Virus record (IMG/VR): IMGVR_UViG_3300038330_000008 | Span: 1-26,451 of that record | From: a virus | Lineage: Duplodnaviria; Caudoviricetes | Length of the DNA: 26,451 bases | Direction: 5' to 3' (one strand) | In this document: piece after piece, positions 1 through 24,900 of the stretch | Layout: every line of letters begins with the position of its first letter | Position numbering within the stretch: the stretch's first letter is position 1 | Position numbers and translations under genes: made by a program | The notes under the pieces: generated by a model | What the model saw: only the letters and a program-made list of their open reading frames with translations | Databases searched by the model: none | What the model was told of the DNA's origin: nothing

Positions 1-108
1 CCCATGCCCCCCTACTGGGCGAGCGCCATCCAGATCCTGGCTCTCTTGGTGATCATCTTCTTCCTGCTGACGAGGTTCGTGCAGCTTCCGAATGTGTTAC
101 CCCGATGA
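1..108 (+). CDS. Small membrane protein, probably 5'-truncated by the window edge (holin-like position)
   Basis: Frame 1 reads PMPPYWASAIQILALLVIIFFLLTRFVQLPNVLPR*, one strong hydrophobic helix; TGA at 106-108. Not in the ORF track. Confidence 0.65.
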   Translation, partial: PMPPYWASAIQILALLVIIFFLLTRFVQLPNVLPR

Positions 109-158
109 CCAAGAAACCATCAATCATCCAGCGCCCTCTGTGGTACGGCAGAGGTTAG
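105..158 (+). CDS. 17-aa mini-ORF MTKKPSIIQRPLWYGRG duplicating the N-terminus of the next gene
   Basis: ATG overlaps the upstream stop (ATGA); first 10 codons match the gene at 166. Confidence 0.4.
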   Translation: MTKKPSIIQRPLWYGRG

Positions 159-196
159 TAACGCCATGACCAAGAAACCCTCGATCACTCAGCGCC
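105..196 (+). repeat. Imperfect 31-nt direct repeat (105-135 and 166-196)
   Basis: ATGACCAAGAAACCATCAATCATCCAGCGCC vs ATGACCAAGAAACCCTCGATCACTCAGCGCC, 27/31 identical. Confidence 0.9.
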
Positions 197-708
197 TCAA
201 GGCCGTGAAGGAACGTATCCGGGAGGCAGGCGGGGAAGCCTATGGCTCTCCCGAGGATCTCCCCCCAGAGGAGGAGCGTAAGCCCTACACCCGCCTGGAC
301 CCCCTGGAACGCGCCATGATCGTCCACGCCAAGCGCAAGCACCCGTCGCTCACCCACAAGCAACTGGCCGACGATTTTGGGTGCGACGAGCGGGCCATCC
401 AGCGCCTCCTCAAGAAGTACCGCCACATGCCACCCGTCAAGGAACTCCTCCACGGCATTGCCCATGAAGCCGTGGTGGACATGAAACGCGCCTCGACCGT
501 TGCTGCCGAGAGGGGCGATCCCAACCCGGCCGAGAAGATCCTGATCCACGCAGGCGAGATCCAGCCCATCATCGAACGCGAAGGCCGCGCCTACGGCCCT
601 CAGATCGTGGTCGGCATCCTTCCAGGAATGCCCGTTCCAGCCCTCCCAGCCAAGCAGGAAGCTCCATTGGTCATTGAGGCGATGGGGGTTGGGTCGCCAG
701 AGGAATGA
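166..708 (+). CDS. terS: Probable terminase small subunit (HTH DNA-binding protein)
   Basis: HTH-like segment HPSLTHKQLADDFGCDERAIQRLLKKY; 180 aa; directly upstream of TerL; GAGGT SD at 151-155. Confidence 0.65.
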   Translation: MTKKPSITQRLKAVKERIREAGGEAYGSPEDLPPEEERKPYTRLDPLERAMIVHAKRKHPSLTHKQLADDFGCDERAIQRLLKKYRHMPPVKELLHGIAHEAVVDMKRASTVAAERGDPNPAEKILIHAGEIQPIIEREGRAYGPQIVVGILPGMPVPALPAKQEAPLVIEAMGVGSPEE

Positions 709-773
709 TGGCTGGAGCGGCTCGCAGTCGCTCCGCTCCTGCGAAGGCAAAGGTTAGCGTGGTGGTGAGATGA
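705..773 (+). CDS. 22-aa bridging mini-ORF MMAGAARSRSAPAKAKVSVVVR
   Basis: Start overlaps the terS stop (ATGA at 705-708) and stop overlaps the terL start (ATGA at 770-773). Confidence 0.4.
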   Translation: MMAGAARSRSAPAKAKVSVVVR

Positions 774-2311
774 TCCCAGGCGCGGCGGAGTTCTCGACCG
801 AATCTCAGCCACTGGTGCATGAACATGCCCGCTGCTGCTGGTGCAAGGCTCCCTTCGTCCGCACGGGTCCCTACTGGGTCTGCTCCACACCGGCCTGCTA
901 CGCCCGACAGCAAGCCTACGGCCTCGGGCTGAGGACTAAGGAGGGAACCAGGTGGCTCTATCTCCCCCTCCCCCGGCAGGTCGATTTCCACGTCTCACCT
1001 GCGCCAAACACACTATTCGGAGGGGCTGCGGGTCCCGGTAAGTCGCACGCGCTGAGGTACGACGCCTACATGAGGTGCCTGACCTATCCGGGCTACTCCG
1101 CGCTCCTGCTCCGTAGAACCTTCCCGGAGCTGAAGAAAACCCACATGAGGGCGGCAGAGCGCGAACAGGACCTCATCTCCGCCCGCTTTGGAGCCACTGA
1201 GCGGGTGATGCGCTTCTCCAACGGGAGCTACCTGGAGTTCGGCCACTGTGAGACCTCCCAGGACGTGTCCAAGTACCTCTCCACCGAGTACTGCTGGATC
1301 GGCTTCGATGAGATCACGACCTTCGCCTGGGACGATGTGCTCGAACTCATGAGCCGCGCCAGAACCTCTGATGCGAGCCTGACGGCTATGGTCCGTGCCG
1401 CCACCAACCCCGGCGGCATCTCCGGTCTCCAGATCCGGGACTTCTTCATCGACGGCAACGCCAACCCGGAGGATTACCCCGAGTACGACCCTGCCGAATG
1501 GAGCTACGTGCCCGCGATCTGGACCGATAACCCCTACCTGGACCCGAAGTACGTGAAGCGCCTCAAGGCCCTCCCCAAGATCCGGGTCAAGCAGCTTCTC
1601 GAAGCCGACTGGTACTGCTTCGAGGGCCAGTTCTTCGCTACCTGGGATGAAACCTACAACATCCGGGATCTGGGGGCCGTCTCCGAGGACGTGGAATGGT
1701 TCCGCTCGCTCGACTGGGGCTATAACAGCCCAGGGGTGTGTCTGTGGTGGGCCTGCCTCCCGGATGGGCATTACTACATTGCCCATGAGTACAAGTTCCA
1801 GTACACCCCTATCCCAGAGGTCGCAGACCGCATCATCCAGCACACGAAGGACTTGGGCATCTCCAATATCCGGTACACGGCAGCAGATCCGGCCACGCGC
1901 CAGAACTCCGGCCAGATGGGGGAGTCCATCCTGGAAACCTTCGGCTACCACGGGGTCCCCCTGATGAGTGTCAGTAACGAGCGCAGAAACGGCTGGCAGC
2001 GCCTCCACACCCTGTTCCAGCCCGCTCCAGACACCATGCCGTGGCTCATCGTGTCCCCGGCCTGCCGCTATCTCATCAGGACGATCCCCGCCGCCATCCA
2101 GGACGTGAATGATCCTGATGATCTCGATACCGATGGGGACGATCACGGCCTCGACGCCATGCGCTACGGAGCCATGTCCCGCCCAGCCCCGACGACCCTT
2201 GTGGATCGCACCCTCCCCGGCCCCGGTACGGCTGGGTACTTGTTTCGTGAAGCCCGTAGACCTAAGATTGCGGTGCTTGGGTCCAGGAATGTACGCCTAG
2301 GAGTTCGATAA
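770..2311 (+). CDS. terL: Terminase large subunit
   Basis: Q motif (PLPRQ), Walker A LFGGAAGPGKS, Walker B WIGFDE, motif III ATNPGG, RNase H-like nuclease motifs SLDWG, AADP and DDHGLDAMRY. Confidence 0.97.
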   Translation: MIPGAAEFSTESQPLVHEHARCCWCKAPFVRTGPYWVCSTPACYARQQAYGLGLRTKEGTRWLYLPLPRQVDFHVSPAPNTLFGGAAGPGKSHALRYDAYMRCLTYPGYSALLLRRTFPELKKTHMRAAEREQDLISARFGATERVMRFSNGSYLEFGHCETSQDVSKYLSTEYCWIGFDEITTFAWDDVLELMSRARTSDASLTAMVRAATNPGGISGLQIRDFFIDGNANPEDYPEYDPAEWSYVPAIWTDNPYLDPKYVKRLKALPKIRVKQLLEADWYCFEGQFFATWDETYNIRDLGAVSEDVEWFRSLDWGYNSPGVCLWWACLPDGHYYIAHEYKFQYTPIPEVADRIIQHTKDLGISNIRYTAADPATRQNSGQMGESILETFGYHGVPLMSVSNERRNGWQRLHTLFQPAPDTMPWLIVSPACRYLIRTIPAAIQDVNDPDDLDTDGDDHGLDAMRYGAMSRPAPTTLVDRTLPGPGTAGYLFREARRPKIAVLGSRNVRLGVR

Positions 2312-4363
2312 ATGCCTGACTCACTCCCGTACGATACCGGAGGGGCGCAACCGATCCCGCTCCCCACGAATGACAAGCACCCGAACTCTCTCGGCCAGTG
2401 GCGTACCAGGATCGAAGCCTCCGAGGACATCCTCAAGCAGAAAATGGCTGAGTGGAAGGCGAACATGGATGCCTACCACGGGAAAACGCTCCTCCGCATC
2501 CCGGAGCAGCACACGGTCGTCGTGCCCAAGGATTTCTCCTTCACCGAGCAGAAGAAATCCCAGCTATTCTTCCAGACCCCGGAGATCCAACTCACCGCCC
2601 TCCAGAAGCACCTGGAGGCATCGGTCCTGGTGTTTCAGGCCCGTGTGAACCACGAGCTAGGCCCAGCCGGAGTGGATGTCATGAGCCTGATGGAGGAGGT
2701 CATGTTCGATGTCCTCTGCCCGTCAGGTGTGGGCGTGAGCAAGATCGGCTACGAGACGGTTGTGGACGGCTACCGCCAGATCAGCGCAGACGGTACCCAG
2801 TCCCAGGACCCGATGAACCCCTCCCCGATGGAGCAGGTCCCCAACGTGGTCTTCGAGCAGTACTTCTGGCGCAGGATCGCTCCCGGCAAGCTCCGCTTCC
2901 CCGACACCTTCCGGGGTAGCGACTTCGATGATGCCGACTGGCTGGGGTTTGAGTTCGAGATGGATGCCCTGACCGCCCGCAAGATGTACAACCTGGAGAA
3001 GGTCCCCTCCCAGGGATCGGCAGCCCAGGATGAGTTCTCGCTCTCCCTAGACAAGCCGAGTGTGCTCCATGACGCGAAGAAAGCCAAAGGCTGGGAAATC
3101 TGGTACAAAGCCTCCCGGTTCGATGATCAGGAGAAGCACCCGAACAAACTTCGGCTCCTGGTGCTCCTTGACGGGGTTGATGTTCCGGTACGCCATGAAG
3201 ATTCTCCGTACCAGAGGGTCGGCCCGGATGGGCGGCTGGGCGGGATGGAAGGGTTCCCGATCCACGTACTCACGCTGAGGTTCTCGGATTCCGCCCTCCC
3301 GCCCTCAGACTGCACCCAGTCGCGGGCGCAGGTCGATGAACTCTCGATAGGCCGCTCCCAGATGATCCTCCAGCGCGACAGAAGCATCCCGCTCAGGGTC
3401 GGGGATATTAACCGGCTGGGTGGGCAGGATGGCCTCGACAAGCTGAGGGCGAATATCTGGCAGTCCATCATCCCGGTCTCCGGGCTGGACTCGGGCAACC
3501 CGCCCATCGTGGAGATCGCCAGGGCTGTCTTTCCCCCGGAGAACTTCCGCTTCAACGAGCAGATCGAGAAGGACATCGGGGAAATCTGGGCGATGGGCGC
3601 GAACCAACTCGGGATGCCGGAGCAAACCGTGAGGAGCGCCACCGAGAGCAGCATCATTCAGCAGAACTCAGTCACCCGCCTCCAACGTGAGCGCAACCGT
3701 GTATTCCACTGGTTCACGAATGGCGTGGCGAAACTGGCAAGCCTCATCCAGATGTACGACGATCAGACCGATTACGTCCGTGTGGTGGGTCCAGACGGCA
3801 TCGCGCAACTGCAACCCTGGGACCAGCAGGCCATCCAGGGCAAGTTCGCCTACGCCATCAAGCCCGACTCCGGTATCCCGGTCGATGCGAACCAGGAGCG
3901 CCAGAACGCGATCAACACCTATCAGATGATGATCAACGACCCGGCCATCAACCGGATCGAACTCATCTCGGCCACCTTGAGGAAGCTCAACCTTGATCCT
4001 CAGCGAATGCTCCTTCAGGAGCAGCCAGAGAAGGGTCCTGAGCCGCCGAATATCTCATACCGCTTCTCCGGTGAGGATCTGGACCCGAACTTCCCCAGAT
4101 TCCCTATAGTTATGGAAATATTGAGGTTAGGCGGCATCAACATCTCTCCAGAGGCCATCAAAGCCGCTCAGGATCATGCCCGGAAAGCCTCGCTCGCCAT
4201 GAATCAGACTGTGGGGGTGAGTGCAGAGGATACCGGGCAGGGTACGCCCCCGCCTGAAACAGAGCATGGTGGTCTTGCTGAACAACAGCGTCCTCTCGAA
4301 GCCCATTCAGAGCGGCGTACCGGCGAAATGCCCGGACCTCCGGTAGGGGGAACCATTCAATGA
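2312..4363 (+). CDS. Portal protein
   Basis: 683 aa directly after TerL; GVGVSKIGY and [11 protein letters not shown] (SATE/TATE-type) motifs typical of podovirus/P22-like portals; low-complexity C-terminal tail. Confidence 0.88.
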
Positions 4364-4866
4364 GGTATGTGGCTCGTCACGGGCACACGGCTGGGGGCCA
4401 ACGCACGCAGTTGCACCGGGCGTGGAGCAATATGTGGACCCGCTGTACGAATCCACGCACCGGCAAATATGCTCGGTACGGTGGGCGCGGCATCAACGTT
4501 TGCGACCGCTGGCGCACCTTTGAGCACTTCGCGGAGGATATGGGTGAGCCACCTCCCGGTCTCACGCTGGATCGCATCGACAATGACGGTCCCTACAGCC
4601 CCGAGAACTGCCACTGGGCCACCCCTCTCCAGCAGTCGGAGAATTCCCGGCGCATCACACGGCGGGTGAATGGGCAATCGGCCTCGGAAGTGGCACGGCA
4701 GCTTGGGCTGAAGTCCGCAACGCTACGTATGCACCTGCGGAAGGTGGAACCGGGAAACTGGCTGCTAGTGGGGCAGCCCCCCGGTCGCCATCTCAAGATC
4801 CTCGGGCGCTCGTGGTATCTGCTCCCAGATATGCCATCCGTGAAGGAGATCCGGTGGACCCTCTGA
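4360..4866 (+). CDS. Free-standing HNH-type homing endonuclease with C-terminal HTH
   Basis: WSNMWTRC...[18 protein letters not shown]...[23 protein letters not shown], a common phage HNH-like family signature; ATGA-coupled to the portal gene. Confidence 0.9.
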
Positions 4867-5138
4867 GCGAGGACCGCTGCCCGGACTGCGGGTTCCTGTT
4901 CCCCGCGCCGGGGCTGTTCTGGTATCGGTGCCCCCATCCTCCGCTCGGCACCTTCAACGTCCAGCGGGACGAGATTCCGGGTGGGCAGGTGATCGAGAAC
5001 CTCAGCCCGACGCCACAGCGGTTCTACTCCAAGAGCGCCATCAAGCGGGCGGCGGAGGCCAAGGGACTCGTGCAGGTGGTACGGCACGCCCCGGAGCGGG
5101 GCACGGACAAGAGCAAGCACACGCAGCGGTGGATATGA
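4854..5138 (+). CDS. Small Zn-ribbon-like protein of the type often found after portal genes
   Basis: AAGGAG SD before GTG at 4854; CPDCG and CPH motifs; [16 protein letters not shown] helix. Confidence 0.7.
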
Positions 5139-5233
5139 TTACCGACCCCTACCTGCGCTGGTGTGTGGCCTTTGCGCTGGTCTGGGCGGGTATGCTCGCC
5201 GGTGTGGGCGTGGCATGGCTGGTGGGCTGGTGA
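5135..5233 (+). CDS. 32-aa single-pass membrane peptide
   Basis: [32 protein letters not shown]; ATGA overlap with the upstream stop. Confidence 0.6.
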   Translation: MITDPYLRWCVAFALVWAGMLAGVGVAWLVGW

Positions 5234-5277
5234 AGGTGGTAAACTCTCGCCTCACCCGTTTCTGATTGGAGTTCTGC

Positions 5278-5697
5278 ATGAGCCGTCTGTGTGTCATCAC
5301 GATCCTTGGCCCCGGTGGGGGCGACATCGACAACACCCTCCCCGGCGCACCCGCCTACCCCGGCAACGCGCTCCCCGGCTACGGTGGTCGCCCAGTGGAC
5401 CCCGGCTACGGGCAGGGGGGCATCAATTACCCCTCACAGGGCCTTCCCGGTGGCGGCCATATCAGCCTCCTCCCGGTGTTCCCGTTCGATCCGACGATTC
5501 CCAGCAACGAGTTGCCCGGTGAGCAGCCCGAAGCCGGGAACGAGCTTCCCATCCGTCCGGGTGCCCGCTTCATCGTGAAGTGGCTCTGCGGCTCCGGGTT
5601 GATTCTGGTGCCGGATCAGGATCTCCCGGCAGGCCGTCCCAATCGCCCGTCACAGGGCCTCCCGGAGACTCCGGCCACCAAGCCCGTGCCCAAGTAA
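5278..5697 (+). CDS. Pro/Gly-rich repeat protein, function unknown
   Basis: GGAG SD at 5268-5271; GC3-rich codons; seven xx(N/Q)xLP motifs. Confidence 0.75.
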   Translation: MSRLCVITILGPGGGDIDNTLPGAPAYPGNALPGYGGRPVDPGYGQGGINYPSQGLPGGGHISLLPVFPFDPTIPSNELPGEQPEAGNELPIRPGARFIVKWLCGSGLILVPDQDLPAGRPNRPSQGLPETPATKPVPK

Positions 5698-5698
5698 C

Positions 5699-5956
5699 AT
5701 GGACGGAGACGCGCTCATCATCGGGGCCGATGGCGAGGTCGCCACGGTCCCGACCGTCTCGCTCACGGACGAGGAAGCCCGCCTGCTCCGGGCGTACCGG
5801 CGCTTCCTTGAGTACCGCCACCTCCGGGAAGCTCTGTACTGTGATCGCTGTTTCGAGGGCAACCTCTCGGATGGGTGCGCGGCAGCCGTGACGGAGCACG
5901 AGATCGTGATAAAGTGCCGCTGTAAAGTGAGGACGTTTCTCGGCCCCACCTACTAG
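5699..5956 (+). CDS. Small Cys-rich (Zn-binding) hypothetical protein
   Basis: YCDRC...GC...KCRC; starts 1 nt after the upstream stop; typical codon bias. Confidence 0.75.
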   Translation: MDGDALIIGADGEVATVPTVSLTDEEARLLRAYRRFLEYRHLREALYCDRCFEGNLSDGCAAAVTEHEIVIKCRCKVRTFLGPTY

Positions 5957-5963
5957 GAGGGTT

Positions 5964-6407
5964 ATGAGGCAGTTCGCTCGCCGCTCGGCCCTGATCCTCC
6001 TGCTCAGCCTCAGCACCCTCGGGTGCGAGGACAAGATCATCATTCAGGCCCCGACCGCGCCTGATCCGCCCCCGACCCCTCAGCCCGACCGTATCGAGTT
6101 CCGAGTTTCCGGCTCCTTCCGCTCCGTCACCGTGCGCCACGTCACGGCGCAGGACGGCACCTCGCAGGTCAAGACGGATCTGCCGTACTTCAACTTCTTC
6201 ACCTCCACGCGGGATTTCCTGTTCCTCAGCCTCGAAGCGTGGGCGGCTGGCGAGGGGTTTCTGCAAGTCCAGATCTGGGCGAATGGCTACCTGCTTCAGG
6301 AGGCCAGCATCAGCGAGGAGAACCCGCGTATTTCCATCGCCACCACGTTCCGCCGTGCCGTGGTGACGCCCACGACAGGAGTAACCAGTGCCCAAGCAGC
6401 CCAGTGA
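5964..6407 (+). CDS. Lipoprotein with MmpS-like beta-sandwich domain
   Basis: Strong AGGAGG SD; basic N-terminus, hydrophobic core and lipobox STLG-C; Pro linker; FRVSG...LPY...VQIWANG pattern resembles MmpS-family domains. Confidence 0.75.
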   Translation: MRQFARRSALILLLSLSTLGCEDKIIIQAPTAPDPPPTPQPDRIEFRVSGSFRSVTVRHVTAQDGTSQVKTDLPYFNFFTSTRDFLFLSLEAWAAGEGFLQVQIWANGYLLQEASISEENPRISIATTFRRAVVTPTTGVTSAQAAQ

Positions 6408-6537
6408 CCGCAAGGATGCTCCATCGCCCGCCAAGGCGAAGGAAATCCTCTCCCACGGTACCGTCCAGGGCCACAAACTGACGCCCAAGGCCCGCAAGTT
6501 CTTCGGGGCTGTTGCCTCCAAGGGGAAAAAGTCCTAG
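6388..6537 (+). CDS. 49-aa basic hypothetical protein (missed by the ORF track)
   Basis: AGGAG SD then GTG at 6388: MPKQPSDRKDAPSPAKAKEILSHGTVQGHKLTPKARKFFGAVASKGKKS*; fills the gap before the scaffold gene. Confidence 0.7.
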   Translation: MPKQPSDRKDAPSPAKAKEILSHGTVQGHKLTPKARKFFGAVASKGKKS

Positions 6538-6581
6538 ACTCTCCGGCTAACGATTGACCCACGATACGGGTTATCCCGACT

Positions 6582-7475
6582 ATGCCCGACGATCTGTTCA
6601 GTTCAGACGACATCCAGACCGCTTCCGAGGCTCCCGCAGCCCCGGCTGAGGACTCCGGCCCGTCCCCGGAGGTTCAGGAAGGCTCTCTCGAAACCGCCGC
6701 ACCGACCGCACCTGCCGCGACAGCGCAGGCGGGGGTGACGCCTTCCACACAACCGGCTCCCAAACCCCAGGGTCCCATCCCGTTCGACCGGCACAAGGCC
6801 GTTCTGGACAATGCCCGCAAGGAGTACGAACAGAAGTACGCCTGGGCACAAGGCATCAATCCAGAACAGGGCTATCAGCTTGCGGGACTTGCCCGCGCTC
6901 TAGCCCAAGATCCCGTCGCTACCTACCGCGCCATCGGTGCTCAACTGGAAGCTGCCGGCCTCCTCCAGGGGGCCAACGGCCAGCAACCTCCCCCTCCCGG
7001 CTCGGATAAGCCTCAGCCCGACCTCATCACCGAGGATGGGCGCAGAGTCTATTCCGCGCAGCAGGCGGAGGCGCTCAATGACTGGGGCATGAAGCAGATG
7101 GAGCAGCGCATTGCTCAACGCTTCGGCCCTATCGAGCAGCAGTTCCAGATGAGTCAGGTCATGGCGGAAGCGAACAGCACGGCCTCTCAGGTCTTGCAGG
7201 AAGCCTCCCAGTGGCCGCATTTCAACGAGTGTGCCGTAGAAATCCGTGATGAGATGATCCGCGACAAGCGGTTGAGCCTCGAAGGGGCGTACCGCCGGGT
7301 CGTGGTCCCCAAGCTGCGTCAACTGGAGCGGGCCTCGGTGCTCAAGGAGCTAAAGCAGAAACCCTCAGCCACCACCATGAATCCCGGTCGTCGCCCCACA
7401 ACCGCTGAATCACCTGCGGATACTCCCTGGGAGGACCTGCTGGCGCGGACCTGGGACACGATGGTGGGCACATGA
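6582..7475 (+). CDS. Probable capsid scaffolding protein
   Basis: Directly before the major capsid gene; acidic Pro/Ala-rich N-terminus, GPIPFDRH motif, Gln/Ala-rich helices. Confidence 0.8.
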   Translation: MPDDLFSSDDIQTASEAPAAPAEDSGPSPEVQEGSLETAAPTAPAATAQAGVTPSTQPAPKPQGPIPFDRHKAVLDNARKEYEQKYAWAQGINPEQGYQLAGLARALAQDPVATYRAIGAQLEAAGLLQGANGQQPPPPGSDKPQPDLITEDGRRVYSAQQAEALNDWGMKQMEQRIAQRFGPIEQQFQMSQVMAEANSTASQVLQEASQWPHFNECAVEIRDEMIRDKRLSLEGAYRRVVVPKLRQLERASVLKELKQKPSATTMNPGRRPTTAESPADTPWEDLLARTWDTMVGT

Positions 7476-7487
7476 TAGGACGATGCC

Positions 7488-8459
7488 ATGCCCGATCCAC
7501 AACTAGGCCAGGTAGCCGCCTCCGTCTGGGAACAGAAGCTCGGGGACAAGCCCACCGATAACTTCTTCAACTCCCGCGCTTTCTTCTTCAGCCTCGGCAA
7601 AAAGGGCATGAGGGAAGAAGCTGACGGTGGCCGCCTCATCGAGTACTCGCTCGAATACACCGAGAACACCACCTTCCGTGCCTACACGGAACTGGAACTC
7701 CTCGACACCACCCGGATTGACGTGTTCGATGCGGCCCGCTACGAGTGGCGCATCAACGCCGGGACCGTTGTGTACTCAGAACTGGAACGCCTGAGAGCAG
7801 CGGCAGGCTCCCGCAAGTTCAACGTCATTGCCGAGAAGCTCGAAAACGGCAAGGACAGCCACATCAACCAGATGAATATCCAGTGTCTGGGCACCTCCAC
7901 GGGTGGCCCCGGCATTGACGGGCTGCAATCGATCATCGCGGACAACCCCGCCGTGGGCATTGTCGGCGGCATCGACCCGGCAACCTGGGCCTTCTGGCGC
8001 AACAAGACCGCTGCGGGCACCATGACCGCCGTGGCCTTCGATAACCTCATCGCGGCCATGCGTTCGGTGTACAACCAGTGCAGTAGCGGGGGCGTGGACG
8101 AACTCCCGACCGCGTGCCTCACGACCAGAGCCGTTCTGGAGGGGTACGAGTCGAAGCTCACGGTCAATGAGCGGTTCTACACCTCCGACCTCAAGACGAA
8201 GGGTGACGCCGGGTTCGCCAACGACGCCCTGATGTTCAAGGCCGTACCCATCTTCTACGATGAGGCGGCTCCGGCTGGGAAGGCGTACTTCTACAACAAC
8301 CGGAACCTCAAGCTCGCCTACCTCAAGGGCGGCTGGATGAAGATGTACCCGGAGGTGGACCCAGCGAACCAACTCGCCAACGTCCACAAGGTAGCGACCT
8401 TCGCCAACCTCATCACGAATAACCGCAGACGGTTGGGCGTGGTACACACTATCACCTAG
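7488..8459 (+). CDS. Major capsid protein (HK97 fold)
   Basis: 323 aa; strongest codon bias in the window; GGRLIEYSL, IDGLQSII, VGGID...WRN, GFANDALMFK and NLITNNRR motifs of a widespread podophage capsid family; followed by a terminator. Confidence 0.92.
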   Translation: MPDPQLGQVAASVWEQKLGDKPTDNFFNSRAFFFSLGKKGMREEADGGRLIEYSLEYTENTTFRAYTELELLDTTRIDVFDAARYEWRINAGTVVYSELERLRAAAGSRKFNVIAEKLENGKDSHINQMNIQCLGTSTGGPGIDGLQSIIADNPAVGIVGGIDPATWAFWRNKTAAGTMTAVAFDNLIAAMRSVYNQCSSGGVDELPTACLTTRAVLEGYESKLTVNERFYTSDLKTKGDAGFANDALMFKAVPIFYDEAAPAGKAYFYNNRNLKLAYLKGGWMKMYPEVDPANQLANVHKVATFANLITNNRRRLGVVHTIT

Positions 8460-8483
8460 AGATTTCTCAGCGTCTCCAGGTGT

Positions 8484-8522
8484 ACCGAGGGGGAAGGGCT
8501 GGGATCTTCCCCCTCGGTTTTT
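8484..8522 (+). terminator. Intrinsic terminator after the capsid gene
   Basis: Perfect 13-bp stem ACCGAGGGGGAAG/CTTCCCCCTCGGT, 9-nt loop, followed by TTTT. Confidence 0.8.
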
Positions 8523-8536
8523 CTCCAGAGGAAGTC

Positions 8537-9088
8537 ATGCCACGAGCAAAGGTCGAGAAGGAAGCGGAGGAGCAGGACGGGGGCGCGACCCTGACCTTCG
8601 AGCAACTGAAAGACCTCATGGTGGGTGTGGCGGAAGGTTCCTCCCGTGCCATGCACAAGGAGCTACGGCCCTCCAATCCCACCTTCCCCGACGTGAGCGC
8701 CTACAATCCCCTGGGGGAGCGTGACCATCCCCGCCCGGATCTCACCCGCCCGACCTACTTCTGCGGCGGGGAGCAGCGGAGGGAGTGGCTCACCAGGGAG
8801 GAGATCGACGCCTTCAACGCCATCAAGACCGATTGTGTGGCGAAGGACGGGCGCTGGACGGCCAGGATTCAGCGGGACAACTCCGGGCAACCCCGGCTAT
8901 TTGTCAATGTGCCGCACAGAGGCATCGACCAGCGGGCGGAACTCCCGCCGCTCCTGATCATCCTGCGCGAACTCGTGGAAGGGCCGGAACTCAACGACAT
9001 CGAGATGCTGCGCCTCAAGGTGCAGGAACTTGAGAAGCAGGTGGTCCGCAACCACAAAGCCCCTGTTGAGGTCGAGGATGGCGCTTAG
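8537..9088 (+). CDS. Hypothetical protein (post-capsid position)
   Basis: GAGG SD before ATG at 8537; typical codon bias; C-terminal coiled coil. Confidence 0.8.
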   Translation: MPRAKVEKEAEEQDGGATLTFEQLKDLMVGVAEGSSRAMHKELRPSNPTFPDVSAYNPLGERDHPRPDLTRPTYFCGGEQRREWLTREEIDAFNAIKTDCVAKDGRWTARIQRDNSGQPRLFVNVPHRGIDQRAELPPLLIILRELVEGPELNDIEMLRLKVQELEKQVVRNHKAPVEVEDGA

Positions 9089-9440
9089 CCAGCTATTCGC
9101 CATGACGGAACCGGCTGTCTACCCGCTCCATATCTACCGTGGGGATTCCTATCGCTGGATCTTCATCTGCTGGGCAGACAGCGCCAAGACGGTGCCTGCG
9201 GATCTGACGGGCGTGGTGGTGATCGCGGAGATTCATCAGGTGCGGATCATCGTGCCGCTCACTTGCATCGTCACCGGGCAGGAAATCGAGATGAAGCTCT
9301 CTGGTGTGGATAGCAAGTCGCTGGATCGCAGCGATGCCGTCTGGGATCTGCAACTGGCCTATCCCTCGGGTGACGTGAAAACGATCCTCAAGGGCGGGGT
9401 GCTCATCAAGGGCGACGTGGTGGGATCGAGGGCTGCGTAG
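9078..9440 (+). CDS. BppU/baseplate-upper-like small structural domain protein
   Basis: LHIYRGDSY...PADLTG...AVWDLQLAYPSGDVKTILKG..I..DV pattern of this beta-sandwich family; start may be 9078 or 9102. Confidence 0.7.
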   Translation: MALSQLFAMTEPAVYPLHIYRGDSYRWIFICWADSAKTVPADLTGVVVIAEIHQVRIIVPLTCIVTGQEIEMKLSGVDSKSLDRSDAVWDLQLAYPSGDVKTILKGGVLIKGDVVGSRAA

Positions 9441-9494
9441 GATGCCCCTCTGGGGCCTCCAGCGCCTCTAGGAGCGACGAACGAGGGCCGCCTA

Positions 9495-10175
9495 ATGCCG
9501 ACTGACGTAGAAGCCGTAGACATCATCCTCGGGGGCATCCAAGGGCCTCCGGGACCGACCGGGGCACCGGGACCGCCCGTGGACCCCTCCACCGATCTCG
9601 TCGTGGACACCATCCAGACGGCGGGTGTGGTCGGGGTGGGGCTGGCCCCCAATCCGAACTGGGGGATTGTCGTCTCAGCCGACACGGGACTGACCGGGAG
9701 CGCCTACTTTGGGGATGCGGTGCATGGGGCGACCACGATCCGGGCTATCGAGGGGTATCTGGAGGGTGGCCGCAGCGTCCCGATGGGCTACTGGCAGAAT
9801 GAACCCTTCAATGCGGCGAATTTCACGTCCTCGCATGGGACGTGGGTGCTGACCGCCCCCGATCAGGTGATTCTGCGTTATACCCTCATTGGCAAGACGA
9901 TGATGGTGGCCTTCTCCATCGACAACTCCACCGTGGTCGGGGTGACCACCTACCTCCGCATCAAGGTGCCGGGGGGCTATACGGCCTCCTCCTTGTCCAC
10001 CGGGCGTGGGGCCACCGACTACGTGGACAACGGGGCACCCATTTCGGTCACGGGGTTCGCGGTCGTGATTCCGTCCAGCACCCAGATCCAGTTGTACAAG
10101 GATGAGTTCGTGAACTGGCAGACCTCCTTGAACAACACCGATGTGCGTGGCTCCATCGCCTTCGAGATCGCCTGA
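9495..10175 (+). CDS. Short fibre / receptor-binding protein with short collagen stretch
   Basis: GIQGPPGPTGAPGPP, then a C-terminal beta domain paralogous to that of 13147-14535. Confidence 0.75.
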   Translation: MPTDVEAVDIILGGIQGPPGPTGAPGPPVDPSTDLVVDTIQTAGVVGVGLAPNPNWGIVVSADTGLTGSAYFGDAVHGATTIRAIEGYLEGGRSVPMGYWQNEPFNAANFTSSHGTWVLTAPDQVILRYTLIGKTMMVAFSIDNSTVVGVTTYLRIKVPGGYTASSLSTGRGATDYVDNGAPISVTGFAVVIPSSTQIQLYKDEFVNWQTSLNNTDVRGSIAFEIA

Positions 10176-10234
10176 TGTGTATTTGGTTCTGGCCCAATAA
10201 CCTTTCGGGTATTCGCGCCTTCGAGATTGCGTAA
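10157..10234 (+). repeat. Imperfect 19-nt direct repeat of the fibre gene 3' end (10157-10175 and 10216-10234)
   Basis: CGCCTTCGAGATCGCCTGA vs CGCCTTCGAGATTGCGTAA; all three differences are synonymous (AFEIA-stop in both). Confidence 0.8.
10175..10234 (+). CDS. 19-aa bridging mini-ORF MCIWFWPNNLSGIRAFEIA
   Basis: TGATG overlap upstream and TAATG overlap downstream. Confidence 0.4.
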   Translation: MCIWFWPNNLSGIRAFEIA

Positions 10235-11202
10235 TGACGCTCCAAGACATCGAGCAGGCCATCTACCGGCGCACCGGGTACTCCGACTACCCGCCGCAGG
10301 ATGTCCAGCGCCGGGTGCGGGGCTACATCAACGAGTGGCACCGCAGGATTCTCTCGCTACCGGGGCTGACAAAGCTCCGCGACTCCACGGAGCGGCTGAC
10401 GATCATGAGTGTGGCGGGGCAGTCTCACTACTCGCTTGGTCCCACCGTCGCTCGGGTGCTCAACATCACTGACCGCCAGAACGACCTCAAGCTCCTGCCG
10501 CAATCACTTGACTGGTATCGCACGCAGGAGCCTGATCCGACAGGTATCCAGGGGGTGCCCGACTACTACATCCCCATCGGATTCCGCCCGGTGATGGTGC
10601 AGCCGCAGCGCACGGGCCTCTGGGTGCTCTCGTCCAGTGTGACGGATACCGGCACCGTGTTCCTTGAAGGCGTGCGCGGGTTGGGCGTGACGCAGACGGA
10701 GAGTGTGATCCTCAGCGGTACGACCACGGTGCAGGCGGGAGTGTTCTCGGACTACCTCTCGGTGGAGAAATTCTACCTCTCGGCTCCACAGACGGGCACG
10801 GTGATGCTCGTGAGCGATGCCGCGGCCAGCGTAGAACTCGGGCGCATCCTCCCCGGCACCACGATGATGCGCCACTTCACGATCATCCTGTTCCCCACGC
10901 CGTCTGGTGCCGTGCCCTACCACATTGACTACACGCGCCAGATCCTCGATCTGGTGAACCCGACCGATGAGCCGCTCCTCCCGCAGGACTTCCATCACCT
11001 CCTGGTGCTCGCCGGGCGTGCCGACGAGTACGAGCGCAAGGACGACACGCGCTCGGGGGATGCCAAGGCGGAACTGGCCGGGGGGATCGTGATGCTCCGC
11101 CACTACGTCGAGAACCCTCCGGGCTACTTCATCGTGCCGGGGGAGGATGTGACTGGGGGCCGCTCGAATCTCGGCCCGTGGTTCCCCCGTGGACGGTGGT
11201 AG
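10234..11202 (+). CDS. Head-tail adaptor / tail tubular protein A-like
   Basis: MTLQDI..., GYINEW.R.I, AGQSHYSL, G.P.YY, LFPTP and DEPLLPQDFHHLLV motifs typical of adaptor proteins; sits before the nozzle gene. Confidence 0.75.
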   Translation: MTLQDIEQAIYRRTGYSDYPPQDVQRRVRGYINEWHRRILSLPGLTKLRDSTERLTIMSVAGQSHYSLGPTVARVLNITDRQNDLKLLPQSLDWYRTQEPDPTGIQGVPDYYIPIGFRPVMVQPQRTGLWVLSSSVTDTGTVFLEGVRGLGVTQTESVILSGTTTVQAGVFSDYLSVEKFYLSAPQTGTVMLVSDAAASVELGRILPGTTMMRHFTIILFPTPSGAVPYHIDYTRQILDLVNPTDEPLLPQDFHHLLVLAGRADEYERKDDTRSGDAKAELAGGIVMLRHYVENPPGYFIVPGEDVTGGRSNLGPWFPRGRW

Positions 11203-11205
11203 CCG

Positions 11206-13146
11206 GTGGCTTCGCGTAACCGGCAGTACCTCACCATCCGTGACTTGAGGGGCGGCATGAACGACACCGACCCGCCCACCCTCGTGGCCGAGAACGAGTG
11301 TATCGAAGCGGTGAACGTGGACTGGCAGGAGGGCGGGATCGCGCACCGTCGCCACGGTTCCGAGGTGTTCGACGTGAGCGGCCACACCTTCACGAAGGAT
11401 CTCGCCACCCTCTACCGCCATGTCTCGGACTTCACGCAACTCAAGGCGGAACTCTGGGCCTTCGACTTCGATGGGCATGTGAACCGGCTCAGTGACGGGG
11501 CGACGTGGACCGCCTTCGACACGCCCGATCCCATCTCGGACCCCCAGCACGTCGTCTGCTGCACCTTCAACGGCCAATGCTTCATGGCCTACAACTCGGG
11601 GGTGGATCGCCTGCATGTGGCGCAGGATAACGGCCCCGGAGACCGGACCCTGCGCCGGGTCGGGATCACGCCCCCTGCGGCCCCGACCATCGGCACCAAG
11701 AGTGCGGGAGCCGTCACCGACACCCGCACCTACAAGGTGGGCTGGCGCTACGAGACGACCGTGTTCGGCACCTACATCACCCGCTCGGAACTCTCCCCCG
11801 CCTCGACGCCTGCGACGGTGCTCGCCGCGCAGCAGGTGATCGTGAACCGGCCTGCGCTCCCAACCTCCCCCGTCGAGGATGTGACGCACTGGGATCTCTA
11901 TGCGGCCTCGACGGACGGCGTGTACTACGGCCCGATTGCCTCGGCTCCCGCCGCCACCGCGAGCCTCATCGATAACGTCGCCGTCATCAACACCTTCCCG
12001 GTGGCTCCGCTCATCGGGGCCTACCTGCCGCCGCCCTCGGCCCGCTTCCTCATCACGGACGGCAACCGCCTGATCATGGCCGGAAGCTGGGAGCAGGAGC
12101 CGAATGCGCCCCGCAGCCACGGCCTGAGCAGCCGGGTGTGGTTCACCCCCGTGTTGGGCACCAGCAGCGGCAACGGGGAACGGGTGCCCGAGATCGCCAA
12201 TGTCCAGAACAACTACCTCGATCTCACCGAGAAGGACGGGGAATCCATCACCGGGCTGGCGCAACTGCTCGGCATGGTCTACGTGTTCAAGCAGCGCCAA
12301 CTCTGGAAGCTCGTGCCCACCGGCATCGATACGGCCCCCTACCATGTGGTGCAGGTGAGCCGTGACATCGGCACCCTCTCGCACAAGTCGATCTGTGTGG
12401 GCGAGGATCAGGATGGCAACCCGGCGCTCTACTTCCTCAGCCACACGGGTCCCTACCGCATTGGCTCGACCGGGCTGGAGTTTCTGGGTTGGAAGATCCG
12501 GCGCTTCTGGGACCGGGTGAACCTGACACCCACGGAGCAGCACGCGACGGGTCTCCACTACAGCGAGAAACAGGAAATCTGGTGGTGGATCGCGGTGGAT
12601 GGGTCCAACTCCCCCAATGTGCGGCTGATGTACGACATGCTCGACGGGGGCTTCTCGGTGAATCCCTACCCCAATCAGGACCCGGTGGGGACGGCCTCGT
12701 GCCTCTTTTCGGATGTGCCTGGGACGCGCATGTCGATTGAGATGAAGCCGTACTTCTCGCTCAACAAGGGCGAGCCGGTCATCCTCAAGGGGGATACCGG
12801 CACCCGCGACTACGGCGAGAAGTATCAGGCGCTCATCACGACCAAGCCTTACGTCCTGGAGACGATCCTGCGGGAGACGAGCGCGTGGGAGGGGCGGATT
12901 CTCGCCGTGGCGGCCCCGACCGAGGTGCAACTCACGCTCATCCGGGACTTCGGGCTGGAGATCCACGAGGAGATGATCGACCTGACGCCCCAGTTGGCCG
13001 AGACGCATGTGATCCGCAAGTTCGAGGCGAGCTACCTCTCGGGGAATCGCGCCCTTCAGGTGACGCTGGGCGATCCGGGGAACGTGGATGCCGACTGGAC
13101 GCTCGATGAACTGGTGCTCCCTGTCCAAGCCCATCAGGAGGACTGA
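11206..13146 (+). CDS. Tail nozzle / packaged-DNA stabilisation protein (tubular B or P22 gp10-like)
   Basis: DLRGGMND N-terminus, AVNVDW..GG...RRHGS, beta-propeller-like motifs ([34 protein letters not shown]). Confidence 0.75.
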
Positions 13147-14535
13147 GTGAAGCTGGGCCTGATGAACCGGGAGGAAATCTCGCACCTGAGCCGTCCGCTG
13201 ACGGATGAACTCGACTCGATGATTGCCCGCATTCGGGCGACATGGGACGTGGACCACAACCCGGATGGCACGCACCACTCCGGGCTGAGCGGGGAGCCGG
13301 GACCGCCCGGACCACCCGGACCCGCAGGCCCCGCTGGAGGCCCCCAGGGACCTCCAGGACCGCAGGGGGACCCAGGGCCTGCCGGACCCACAGGCCCCAC
13401 CGGATCGACCGGCCCAGCGGGTCCTACGGGACCAGAAGGGCCATCTGGTGCCGACTCCACGGTTCCCGGCCCACAGGGTCCGCAGGGAGCCATCGGCCCT
13501 CCCGGACCTGAAGGGCCAGAGGGAGCGGCGAGCACCGTGCCCGGTCCCGAGGGGCCAGCAGGAGCCACAGGTCCGGAGGGTCCAGAGGGGCCGCAAGGGG
13601 CGGATAGCACGGTGCCAGGGCCTCCCGGAGCCACAGGAGCGACAGGGCCAGAGGGACCACAGGGCGATCCCGGCCCGCAGGGGATTCAGGGCATCCCTGG
13701 GACGACCGGGGCCACCGGCTCGCAGGGTCCTCAAGGCGTCAAGGGCGATACCGGGAATACCGGGGCGCAGGGGATTCAGGGGATACCGGGTCCAGAAGGG
13801 CCAGAGGGTCCAATCGGCCCCGAGGGACCGCAGGGGGATGTCGGGCCACAGGGACCCGCAGGGACCGCGACGGTGCCCGATCCCCTCGCCATCAACGTCC
13901 TCACGGTCGCTGACTCCGCCGCCATCGGGGGCTGCCCACTGGTGGCCGGGACGGATCTCACCGTCTGCGGCACCTCGCAACTCACCGGGGATGTGGGCCT
14001 CGGCGGGGTGCCGGTGGCGGGCACCGACCTGACGGTGTACGGGACGACCACCCTCTCGGGGGCGGTGACGGCGGGGGCAAGTCTCACGGTGCAGGGTGGC
14101 CTCGGGGTGATGATTCCCTCTGGCGGGGTGACGGAACTGGGTCGCTCGGCGGCGATGGGCTACGGCATCAACGTGGCCTACTCTGCCGCGAACTTCACAG
14201 CCGGGGCCGGGGCGTGGACGGTGGACGCGGGGGATCAGGTGATCCTGCGCTACACGCTGGTCGGCAAGACGATGCTCCTGATGTTCTACCTCAACACCAC
14301 CAGTGTGTCGGTGGCGACCAATGAACTCCGCATCAAGATTCCCGGTGGCTTTGCGGTGAGTTCCTCGGCTTATGGGACCGGGATCTGGACCGGAGAATCA
14401 CCGATGACGACCGGCCCCATCACCGCGACGTACACTCTCGCCTATGTCGCCTTGAACAAGGCCGGGTTTGCGAACTTCGCTACCGCGACCAACACGCTGA
14501 GTGTGCGCGGTTCCATCACCTTCGAGATTGCCTGA
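13147..14535 (+). CDS. Collagen-like tail fibre protein
   Basis: N-terminal DHNPDGTH anchor motif, long G-X-Y tract, two [11 protein letters not shown] repeats, C-terminal beta domain ending [10 protein letters not shown]; AGGAGG SD. Confidence 0.85.
13282..13863 (+). repeat. Collagen G-X-Y tract with three STVP interruptions
   Basis: Repeated GPE/GPQ/GAT triplets; GADSTVPGP twice and GAASTVPGP once. Confidence 0.9.
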
Positions 14536-14546
14536 GAGGGGTTCCT

Positions 14547-14840
14547 ATGAGTGTCGGCCTCCCGGTCACGAAAGACGAGATTGACGCCCGCTCGGGCGAC
14601 ATCTCGCGCACCTTCCAGCGCGTGTTCGAGGATGTGCTGACGATGCAGGAATATCTGACCGCGACGGTCGATGCCGATCTCGTCGCACTGGGGTACACCA
14701 CTGAGGAAGTGGGCCTGCTCAAGTCGGCCTTTGCGGATCTAGAACAACTTGGACGCATCTGGGATGGAAGCGAGGGTCTTGCCGCTGCCAAGGACTTTAG
14801 AATCTTTGTGCAGCGGTTGTGGGGTGTGGGCGCGTTCTAA
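14547..14840 (+). CDS. Small helical protein after the fibre (possible fibre chaperone or cap)
   Basis: 97 aa with SD; DADLVALGYTTEEV motif; position directly after the fibre gene. Confidence 0.75.
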   Translation: MSVGLPVTKDEIDARSGDISRTFQRVFEDVLTMQEYLTATVDADLVALGYTTEEVGLLKSAFADLEQLGRIWDGSEGLAAAKDFRIFVQRLWGVGAF

Positions 14841-15307
14841 TGGTCGTGACGCTCGCGCCAAATCGTACCTCGTCGGATCATCGTAATGAGGCTGGGACTG
14901 ACACCGTAGAGGTCGGCAATGGTGCGGGGCGATTCGCCCGTCAGTTGTCGGATGGCGTCGGCGTCTGCTCGACTGAGCTTGATGATGCGCCGTTCACGGT
15001 CGTCTCTGTCCTTCACGTTATCAGCCGGTGTCCCGGCCAGCAGGTGTGCGACGTTGCAGCACGGCGGGTTGTCGCAGGCGTGGCGTACGTTCTCAGGCCA
15101 CCAGCCGTGATGGATGAAGAAGGCGACCCGATGAGCCAGCAAAGTGTGTGGGTCCATGCGGAACACCCCGTACTTGAATGGGCCGCAAGACAGTTTCCCA
15201 GCCTGCCACGGCCAACACTCGTCCGACTCTCGGACTTCGACTTTGGCCCAGAAGCGCGAGAGTTGTTGTGGGGTGAGTGGATTTGTGGAGAGAATGCGCG
15301 TAGCCAT
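14837..15307 (-). CDS. HNH homing endonuclease (HNH_3 type) with C-terminal HTH, inverted in the late operon
   Basis: RFWAKV..DECWPW...YGVF...AHRVAF...VRHACDNPPCCNVAHLLAGTPADNVKD, then KLS..D...IR...IADLYGVSPSLITMIRRG.IW. Confidence 0.93.
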   Translation of the reverse strand: MATRILSTNPLTPQQLSRFWAKVEVRESDECWPWQAGKLSCGPFKYGVFRMDPHTLLAHRVAFFIHHGWWPENVRHACDNPPCCNVAHLLAGTPADNVKDRDDRERRIIKLSRADADAIRQLTGESPRTIADLYGVSPSLITMIRRGTIWRERHDH

Positions 15308-15379
15308 GACGCCTCCCTGATAGGCGGGGTGGTTAGAGGCCGGGCGGCGGTGATACGTCGTCCTGCCTCGCTCATTCTA
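15308..15379 (-). promoter_or_regulatory. Putative promoter and structured leader of the inverted HNH gene
   Basis: TAGAAT -10-like box (15379-15374), a long imperfect inverted repeat (15336-15369), then a CGCCT/AGGCG stem enclosing the GGAGG SD. No convincing -35. Confidence 0.55.
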
Positions 15380-15405
15380 GCGTATCCTCTGCCGGGAGAG
15401 TAATC

Positions 15406-17528: not shown

Positions 17529-17539
17529 GTAGGTGAGTG

Positions 17540-18706: not shown

Positions 18707-18715
18707 GGATTTGAG

Positions 18716-19840: not shown

Positions 19841-19843
19841 TGT

Positions 19844-23851: not shown

Positions 23852-23975
23852 GGTGGCGGGGCCATCCTGGTGTGGTCCTCCCGCACTTCCAGCAGTAGAG
23901 ATAGACCCGCCCCGGTCGGATCTGCCACACGTCATGGTGCCAGCAGAGCCACTGGCGGAAGCGGGTCCAGTACAT
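23811..23975 (-). CDS. 54-aa small Zn-binding protein
   Basis: MYWTRFRQWLCWHHD...LYCWKCGRTTPGW (C-x2-H...C-x2-C); ATG overlaps the upstream stop (TGATG). Confidence 0.65.
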   Translation of the reverse strand: MYWTRFRQWLCWHHDVWQIRPGRVYLYCWKCGRTTPGWPRHPTSEQRASPTLEA

Positions 23976-24064
23976 CACGACAACAGCACCGCCACGGCGT
24001 ACATCAGCACGCCTGCGACGAGTAGCGAGAGTGACACGAGGAACCCCACGTAGAGGGTCCACAT
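23975..24064 (-). CDS. 29-aa membrane peptide (missed by the ORF track)
   Basis: MWTLYVGFLVSLSLLVAGVLMYAVAVLLS*; starts 2 nt after the upstream stop and is coupled to the next gene. Confidence 0.6.
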   Translation of the reverse strand: MWTLYVGFLVSLSLLVAGVLMYAVAVLLS

Positions 24065-24066
24065 GG

Positions 24067-24258
24067 TCAGTCTCCAGTGGGGGAGGGGGCGAAGGTGACG
24101 CCTATGGCAGGCGGAGCCTTGGGATCAGCGCCCGGAATGATGCGGGCGTAGAGCCAGCCACCAGCCACCCTGATGCGCTCAGTCCTGTCGCCGCTTTCGT
24201 TCTTCTGAAACGCTTCCCAGTCTCGTGCGGTCTCGTTCGGGTTGTAGTCGCTCGGCAT
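24067..24258 (-). CDS. 63-aa hypothetical phage protein
   Basis: GGAGGAG SD before ATG at 24258; TERIRVAGGWLY...VTFAP motif. Confidence 0.75.
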   Translation of the reverse strand: MPSDYNPNETARDWEAFQKNESGDRTERIRVAGGWLYARIIPGADPKAPPAIGVTFAPSPTGD

Positions 24259-24367
24259 GATTCTCCTCCGGGTGGAACGTCCACCCACACATGGCGCAGT
24301 ACGCCTCGGTTCCTACACGCTCCACGAGTCTCGTCTCATGGCAGCGCGGGCATTCGAGTTCGCTCAT
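24179..24367 (-). CDS. Small Zn-ribbon protein
   Basis: MSELECPRCH...YCAMCGWTF (CxxC...CxxC). Confidence 0.65.
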   Translation of the reverse strand: MSELECPRCHETRLVERVGTEAYCAMCGWTFHPEENHAERLQPERDRTRLGSVSEERKRRQD

Positions 24368-24424
24368 CAGTGTCACTCACAACCACAGATGGGCATGGCA
24401 GCGCGGGCATTCTAGCTCAGTCAC
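24337..24424 (-). repeat. Imperfect 31-nt direct repeat (24424-24394 and 24367-24337)
   Basis: GTGACTGAGCTAGAATGCCCGCGCTGCCATG vs ATGAGCGAACTCGAATGCCCGCGCTGCCATG, 26/31 identical. Confidence 0.9.
24377..24424 (-). CDS. 15-aa mini-ORF MTELECPRCHAHLWL duplicating the N-terminus of the next gene
   Basis: GTG lies within the last codons of the upstream gene; first 10 codons match the gene at 24367. Confidence 0.4.
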   Translation of the reverse strand: MTELECPRCHAHLWL

Positions 24425-24824: not shown

Positions 24825-24900
24825 AGGTTCTCTCCTTGAACCGAGAAAGTAGACTCGAACAGGCTTCATAGTGGAGCTTTAAGCAAGAGCTATACCCTCC

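Follow-up and report, generated by a model that had tools for sequence, protein, structure and literature searches.

Recoded duplications of gene termini, about 60 nt apart, at coupled gene junctions of an uncultured phage

In fungal mitochondria, mobile open reading frames (mORFs) that encode a nuclease bring in a foreign gene terminus and leave the native one behind, as in the gene hybrids of Allomyces atp6 and of Glomus atp6, atp9, cox2 and nad3 (PMC3630166). In phages, the MobA element supplies a homologous replacement of its target sequence and can lose its HNH gene (10.1101/2022.08.31.505936). Here we describe a 26,451-nucleotide (nt) contig with 64% GC from an uncultured bacterial virus, a short-tailed-type phage (IMG/VR record IMGVR_UViG_3300038330_000008; the whole contig is called the window below), in which the start or the end of a gene is repeated, mostly with silent changes, beside a short insert at gene junctions. 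The layout works like fungal mORF gene hybrids and like the relays of mycobacterial interspersed repetitive units (MIRUs), and it belongs to neither, because the inserts hold no nuclease open reading frame (ORF) and no clear dispersed repeat. The initial annotation, which recognised no described system with this signature, was too strong, given the terminus duplications of mORFs (PMC3630166) and the coupled relay ORFs of MIRUs (PMC12548453).

Three gene boundaries carry a clear duplication, and all three were found again where the initial annotation had placed them, with the single architecture it had described. At the first site (S1, offset 61), positions 105-135 and 166-196 are identical at 27 of 31 nt; at the second (S2, offset 59), 10157-10177 and 10216-10236 agree at 18 of 21; and at the third (S3, offset 57, minus strand), 24424-24394 and 24367-24337 agree at 26 of 31. 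The duplicated starts at S1 and S3 have the same edge, similarity falling to background immediately past nt 31 at both, and after the copies the two sites run on into a common sequence (12 of 13 nt, p about 0.01). The synonymous pairs listed earlier were correct on re-check.

105..135, plus strand: S1 copy A (orphan), first 10 codons plus 1 nt of the terminase small subunit-like gene terS; copy B is 166-196
105..158, plus strand: S1 mini-ORF of 17 amino acids (aa), stop 7 nt ahead of the terS start
136..165, plus strand: S1 spacer, 30 nt, with two stop codons and a Shine-Dalgarno (SD)-like purine run
10157..10177, plus strand: S2 copy A, end of the fibre-like gene 9495-10175 plus TG
10175..10234, plus strand: S2 relay mini-ORF, 19 aa, entered by TGATG and left by TAATG
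10178-10215 and 10216-10236, plus strand: S2 spacer and orphan copy B
24394..24424, minus strand: S3 copy A (orphan start), with an 8-nt overlap with the upstream gene end; copy B is 24367-24337
24424-24377, minus strand: S3 mini-ORF, 15 aa
24368..24393, minus strand: S3 spacer, 26 nt

With collagen repeats excluded, 19 hits with at least 18 matches in 21 nt were found over all offsets, three of them at offsets 57-61. Order-5 Markov genomes gave an expectation of 0.02 such hits at offsets 50-70, and 98 of 100 simulations had none. The three duplications are real and far above chance, and the whole-window count of cases at offsets 50-70 stands well above the Markov expectation (three seen against 0.02).

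To place these sites among the other gene boundaries, 32 junctions between 33 genes were listed, with genes and starts called by hand. Gaps of 49-61 nt occur at only five of them: S1, S2, S3, the junction between terS and the terminase large subunit gene terL, and the junction between an LtfC-like gene and the first fibre-like gene (fibre 1). Other start choices give two or three more gaps of 44-77 nt, which have no convincing duplication. At the terS-terL junction (S4, offset 65), positions 705-722 resemble the terL start (copy B, 770-787), with 10 of 15 nt identical over codons 2-6 (p 0.003). At the LtfC-like junction (S5, offset 55), the gene end R-A-A-stop is repeated with synonymous changes, and 11 of 15 nt agree over the last five codons (p 0.0007). 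Both are weaker than S1-S3 because they were found after looking, and by our estimate about 16 comparable termini could have been tested.

705..773, plus strand: S4 relay mini-ORF, 22 aa, ATGA-coupled to the terS stop and the terL start
9427..9440, plus strand: S5 copy A, last codons and stop of the LtfC-like gene
9441..9481, plus strand: S5 spacer, 41 nt, containing a 9-aa mini-ORF (9442-9471)
9482..9495, plus strand: S5 copy B (orphan gene end), whose TAA overlaps the fibre 1 ATG (TAATG)

Two further junctions were noted and not counted. At 5230-5265, an 11-aa ORF is GTGA-coupled to the stop at 5233, and the gene end is weakly resembled (9 of 15 nt) about 47 nt downstream; this is possibly a sixth, very decayed site. 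At the minus-strand junction at 24869, the end of a Vut_1-like gene is similar to what is probably the true start region of the gene that follows (24901-24920 against about 24815-24830, 12 of 21 nt, offset 88), a borderline case.

Logan contigs of four other sequencing runs (X2-X5), all 2020 mine-drainage metagenomes that may stem from one campaign and are distinct from X1, the run the window may come from, were compared with positions 1-11000. S1 is bridged by single contigs in X2 (1-472, no differences), X3 (1-765, two differences) and X4 (1-263, no differences), S2 by a single X2 contig (9940-10689, one difference), and S4 and S5 both by X2 and X4 contigs with zero differences. Cross-run contigs thus bridge four of the five sites, S3 lying beyond the compared region. 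An assembly artefact, which the initial annotation had named as a possible source of the duplications, is thereby refuted for S1, S2, S4 and S5. The X3 contig has only two variants within 1-765 (positions 127 and 142), both in the S1 mini-ORF and both amino-acid-changing: one makes codon 8 of the upstream copy Thr, as in terS, and the other removes a Trp. They were read from one contig with a depth of 5.7. Elsewhere in the compared region, X3 has a cluster of five variants in the capsid gene (8243-8264), two of them also in X2 at low depth, which suggests a recombined patch or a second strain.

At all five sites it is the orphan copy that retains the overlap with the adjoining gene. At the start duplications (S1, S3 and S4) the upstream copy overlaps the stop of the preceding gene, and at the end duplications (S2 and S5) the downstream copy overlaps the start of the following gene. 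S2 and S4 are ORFs that relay from stop to start without interruption, with a spacing of -4 at both ends of S4 and of -1 at S2. S1 is out of the relay frame and has an SD-like run before terS, the S3 mini-ORF stops 9 nt before the downstream ATG, and S5, though in frame with its TAATG, is interrupted by an internal stop. Another open frame, of 25 aa (92-169), reads through all of the S1 insert and at its end overlaps the terS start by ATGA. In relatives, the gap between the head-tail adaptor gene, which follows S2 in the window, and the gene upstream is at most 15 nt in 39 of the 49 scored junctions and 45-70 nt in none (51 were examined, two of them without a scorable ORF). Since the adaptor is tightly joined upstream in these relatives, tight coupling would be the ancestral state and the inserts derived.

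The differences between copies are mainly silent. The cores of S1-S3 have 12 base differences in 10 codons, and eight of the 10 codons are synonymous or start swaps. A null model in which an exact duplicate diverges, the orphan neutrally and the working copy under constraint, predicts 3.6 synonymous codons; the probability of at least eight is 0.012, and that of at most two non-synonymous codons is 0.00075. Given this excess, both copies were likely constrained at the protein level while diverging. Adenine mutagenesis of the diversity-generating retroelement type was considered and rejected, as the copy differences are not A-specific. The recoding can be read in two ways: either each copy served as a working terminus in its own lineage during divergence, or the mini-ORFs are under selection where they stand. 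The two non-synonymous X3 variants favour a relaxed constraint on the S1 mini-ORF now, and with it the separate-lineage reading. A selected decoy leader, one of the explanations offered by the initial annotation, is not favoured, because the only changes of X3 in 1-765 both alter mini-ORF amino acids.

The spacers between the copies are 26-41 nt long and contain no nuclease ORF. Near their 5-prime ends, 7 of 12 columns are common to the S1, S2 and S3 spacers (p 0.0016 against genome triples). Anchored comparison of pairs gave p 0.003 for S4-S1 (in register), 0.015 for S1-S3, 0.005 for S3-S5 and 0.057 for S1-S5, and the sum of the pair scores gave p 0.035 anchored and 0.019 local against genome segments, and 0.0006 against shuffles. 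In four of the five mini-ORFs, [LI]W is encoded early in the spacer. These comparisons suggest, and do not establish, a spacer family. A five-way MAFFT alignment is poor (43% column identity, with S2 misregistered). The S1-S3 spacers have no second match within the window.

Other origins of the inserts were tried. A hairpin element was rejected, as no spacer folds better than its shuffles (z from +1.95 to -1.34), and Rfam gave one match at chance level (E 0.77). The S2 peptide is not a remnant of a fibre paralogue: the 14 residues before the shared tail are at background (p 0.78), and each of the 126 homologue tails compared scores higher (of 150 hits, 127 could be anchored, and self was removed).

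A close relative was not found in IMG/VR single-protein scans (terS, adaptor and terL), a terS alignment scan or a GTDB adaptor-alignment scan. GenBank phages reach 34% identity at most for terL and 30% for the capsid, and the adaptors of the nearest loci retrieved are 28-48% identical; for the zinc-ribbon ORF that follows S3, no candidate homologue was found. Close relatives are seen at the protein level, with adaptors 87% and 73% identical and a member of the terS cluster (P0028). From IMG/VR and metagenomes, 129 loci of distant relatives were collected, 95 of them non-redundant (about 770 kb). At offsets 30-150, no terminus in these 95 loci is duplicated with 18 of 21 nt matching. As far as these loci reach, the 60-nt form appears specific to this lineage. 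The S1/S3 motif occurs in 92 IMG/VR loci, 64 of them distinct, and none of the 64 has a duplication; their best flank match is 15 of 21, against 19-20 in the window. The S3/S5 consensus and an S1-based pattern had no IMG/VR hit; in GTDB, 27 records contain the S3/S5 consensus, once each and always without a duplication beside it (best flank 12 of 18). As exact-match searches, these would not pick up diverged copies. The literature, in a search mostly outside subscription papers, gave no description of this layout in a phage.

Some of the related loci have repeats of other kinds. In locus L017 (2980-3450), about 35 nt around the portal stop are repeated with few changes across a 435-nt cargo with two small ORFs of 60 and 71 aa, possibly a full-size terminus-duplicating cassette in this phage family. 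In L010 (6110-6265), 16 nt of the adaptor stop/start junction recur without change at a distance of 139 nt upstream, where they lie in a Cys-rich ORF. Tandem paralogues of about 250 aa lie directly past the capsid region in L083 (1613-3205) and L102 (6044-7574), with near-identical 5-prime ends in L083, and in L123 (4523-4730) a small Cys/His-containing ORF is tandemly duplicated at an offset of 122.

We tentatively prefer to read the inserts (55-65 nt) as terminus-replacing micro-cassettes that carry a diverged donor copy of the terminus and were filtered for intact translational coupling. Their likely route of entry is recombination with related phages that had diverged; phage recombinases are reported to tolerate divergence (PMC3945230). 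The junctions would originally have been tightly coupled. The incoming piece would consist of a gene terminus of the donor lineage plus about 26-41 nt of other DNA; its copy would become the working terminus, and the native copy would be stranded, still overlapping its neighbour. Because the incoming terminus would once have worked in the donor lineage, silent recoding could arise without selection on the mini-peptides, which would probably be by-products. Short identical cores (12-19 nt at S1-S3) likely served entry or spread through annealing or break repair, and a free-standing HNH nuclease acting in trans would be the likeliest trigger, as a candidate only. An insert would survive if it relayed ribosomes or supplied a new ribosome-binding site, and would otherwise be lost. 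Two such nuclease genes lie in the window.

4360..4866, plus strand: free-standing HNH endonuclease gene 1 (HNH1), phrog_3377 (E 2.5e-42), a candidate mobiliser
14837..15307, minus strand: free-standing HNH endonuclease gene 2 (HNH2), phrog_59 (E 2.5e-21), a candidate mobiliser

HNH1 sits between the portal gene, whose stop it overlaps (ATGA), and a zinc-ribbon gene, with which it has 13 nt in common. None of the 129 related loci has an HNH1 homologue, and in L006 and L007 the zinc-ribbon gene directly follows the portal gene. HNH2 lies antisense inside the virion gene block, its stop overlapping that of gene 14547-14840.

In favour of the micro-cassettes we count the offsets of 55, 57, 59, 61 and 65 at the only junctions with gaps of 49-61 nt, the 31-nt edge common to S1 and S3, the synonymous excess, the tight adaptor junction in relatives, the X3 variants, the spacer chain S4-S1-S3-S5, the L017 cargo repeat and the two HNH genes. 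Several points weigh against them. No joints, and so no empty allele, were seen in the four runs over 1-11000, where contigs show presence, not absence. No donor sequence was seen either, close relatives having been compared at the protein level. In 764 called genes of distant relatives, matches are no more frequent at offsets 50-70 than at control offsets. The genes identified in the window include no recombinase, and terminus duplications flank neither of the HNH genes. The synonymous test covers 10 codons with edges set by DNA similarity, and S4 and S5 were found post hoc. The kinship of the spacers is modest overall: anchored p exceeds 0.07 for the remaining six of the 10 pairs, membership of the set is not significant for S2 or S4, and ordinary gene starts score equally well against the spacers, so that part of the kinship may be convergence on start-like or SD-like sequence. 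Finally, the fixed 31-nt edge and the uniform size are not explained by ordinary recombination.

This last point is the main reason for keeping a more specific case, which we consider unlikely: a dedicated class of gene-less homing micro-cassettes of about 60 nt in phages, with one family in at least five junctions including those of both terminase genes. A nuclease acting in trans would recognise coupled stop/start junctions and open the DNA 31 nt after the start codon, and the recoded terminus would immunise the site and keep the ribosome relay. Of the mechanisms proposed in the initial annotation, a common mechanism that delivers the terminus in recoded form agrees with the synonymous excess, the five similar offsets, the shared edge and the partial spacer kinship. 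Its small insertion element fared less well as a discrete family, with a kinship of p 0.02-0.035, a weakly linked S2 and no copies found outside this phage.

A rather unlikely alternative starts from larger cargo cassettes (with HNH or small accessory genes) that brought a recoded terminus and whose content later shrank to a minimal spacer. Such erosion would explain the synonymous excess equally well, L017 would be the full-size state in this phage family, and two HNH genes are still in the window; in the MobA precedent the nuclease was lost while the cassette was kept (10.1101/2022.08.31.505936). Five independent deletions would all have to end at 55-65 nt, however, and neither HNH gene has a terminus duplication. 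The HNH1 start, tried as a source of the spacers and rejected, ranks only 7th of 32 gene starts against them, and HNH2 is not among the top eight.

Somewhat less probable still is that the mini-ORFs are selected in place, as decoy leaders or relays that tune stoichiometry (for example of terS to terL) or as take-off and landing sites of a ribosome hop like that of T4 gene 60. The orphan copies are conserved at the amino-acid level, the S2 and S4 relays are uninterrupted, [LI]W recurs early in the spacer at four of five sites, and direct repeats that could be deleted seem to have persisted long enough to diverge. Yet X3 alters that Trp and one copied codon, S1 is off the relay frame, S3 and S5 have internal stops, and no fold is better than shuffles. 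A hop is further opposed by the lack of a stop codon directly after codon 10.

The repeat-spacer unit of type I-E and I-F CRISPR arrays is 60-61 nt long. The roughly 30 + 30 nt unit seen here resembles it, and the sites could have arisen by exact target-site duplication, through off-target Cas1-Cas2 integration or an element like a MIRU or a miniature inverted-repeat transposable element, followed by neutral decay with survivors at gene termini. This explanation, which we regard as improbable, accounts for the fixed edge; off-target arrays have been reported (10.1101/148544), and MIRUs insert at start codons with coupling (PMC12548453). Neutral decay of the orphan predicts mostly non-synonymous differences, against the probabilities of 0.012 and 0.00075 given above, no GTDB genome has more than one copy of the S3/S5 consensus, and none of the 64 distinct IMG/VR motif hits has a duplication. 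For the Cas variant, no cas gene was found among the ORFs scanned. Chance or an assembly artefact is very improbable for the set, given three duplications against 0.02 expected and the contigs of other runs across S1, S2, S4 and S5, even though S3 was outside that bridging and S4 and S5 are weak singly (13 of 18 matches occur by chance at about 0.3-1% of the termini of relatives).

The window is likely an incomplete phage genome, since adaptor-bearing related contigs are often 40-43 kb long. Besides terminase, capsid and an SU10-type adaptor, the window encodes a collagen fibre. The identity of terS is proposed from its position directly upstream of terL.

4..108, plus strand: hydrophobic 34-aa ORF upstream of S1, whose TGA overlaps the orphan ATG (ATGA)
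166..708, plus strand: terS, a putative terminase small subunit gene with a helix-turn-helix (PF13384, E 5e-4) and homologues, directly upstream of terL
770..2311, plus strand: terL, terminase large subunit (phrog_979, E 9e-38)
9102-9440, plus strand: LtfC-like gene (PF23926, E 1e-3)
9495-10175, plus strand: fibre-like gene (fibre 1), without a Pfam match
10234..11202, plus strand: head-tail adaptor gene (PF24175, E 3e-9)
24179..24367, minus strand: 62-aa zinc-ribbon-like ORF (phrog_22274, E 2e-4), which bears S3 copy B
24417..24869, minus strand: gene upstream of S3, without a family match

The fibre-like genes 9495-10175 and 13147-14535 encode a shared C-terminal domain (about 125 aa), for which 1,855 relatives were counted at E values of 0.001 or below. 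The Vut_1-like membrane gene (24901-25895, minus strand; PF02592, E 5e-5) overlaps a phrog_15826 gene of unknown function. No sigma-70-like promoter was found in 1-12000.

If the inserts are indeed terminus-replacing micro-cassettes, terminus replacement, known from kilobase nuclease cassettes, would also occur in phages at about 60 nt and repeatedly in one genome. It would offer a concrete route for rewiring gene junctions with translational coupling intact, and would explain short ORFs that copy the first or last codons of a neighbour and are missed or mis-started by gene callers. Being of different ages, the five sites would show successive stages of decay as a natural series. A nuclease acting in trans over a fixed reach of 31 nt, if real, would make this a new kind of minimal mobile element.

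In T4 gene 60, the take-off codon is followed by an immediate stop in a strong stem-loop. The stops of S1 and S3 come six to eight codons past codon 10, the inserts have no significant hairpin, and they stand at gene termini, with downstream genes that have their own starts. The likeness to the MobA cassette and the 50-nt bypass of gene 60 lies in an insert of 50-60 nt in a phage (10.1101/2022.08.31.505936). Insertions of restriction-modification systems with long target duplications carry R or M genes, which the inserts lack, and their duplications exceed 30 bp (about 46 bp, 93-100% identical in the table rows compared), whereas the copies here are 14-31 nt, 84-87% identical at the clear sites, and only S1 and S3 reach 31 nt (PMC2853133). 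From Cas1-Cas2 integration one expects a unit of about 60 nt, which the offsets of 55-65 match, and decay blind to codons, which the synonymous excess (P 0.012 and 0.00075) contradicts; unrelated spacers that match foreign or self DNA are also expected, and the spacers here have partial kinship, those of S1-S3 having no second match in the window.

MIRUs share with the present sites a short insert at the start codon and a mini-ORF coupled to the next gene (PMC12548453). Their -4 coupling is found at both ends of S4, with -1 at S2 and early stops at S1, S3 and S5, so that three of the five relays are incomplete. Unlike in MIRUs, what is repeated is the terminus of the gene itself, silently altered; the inserts are only weakly alike, and instead of many copies in a host chromosome there are 27 single GTDB hits in an exact-match search. 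From mORF hybrids the sites differ in lying in a phage genome, in having no endonuclease ORF between the copies (the HNH genes are kilobases away), in spacers of 26-41 nt against about 1 kb, in copies of 14-31 nt, and in that three of five are 5-prime ends (PMC3630166). What they have in common with these hybrids is a gene terminus present twice, in copies that differ far more in DNA than in protein, with one of the two orphaned, and the mainly synonymous divergence of the termini is found here in eight of 10 differing codons, counting start swaps.

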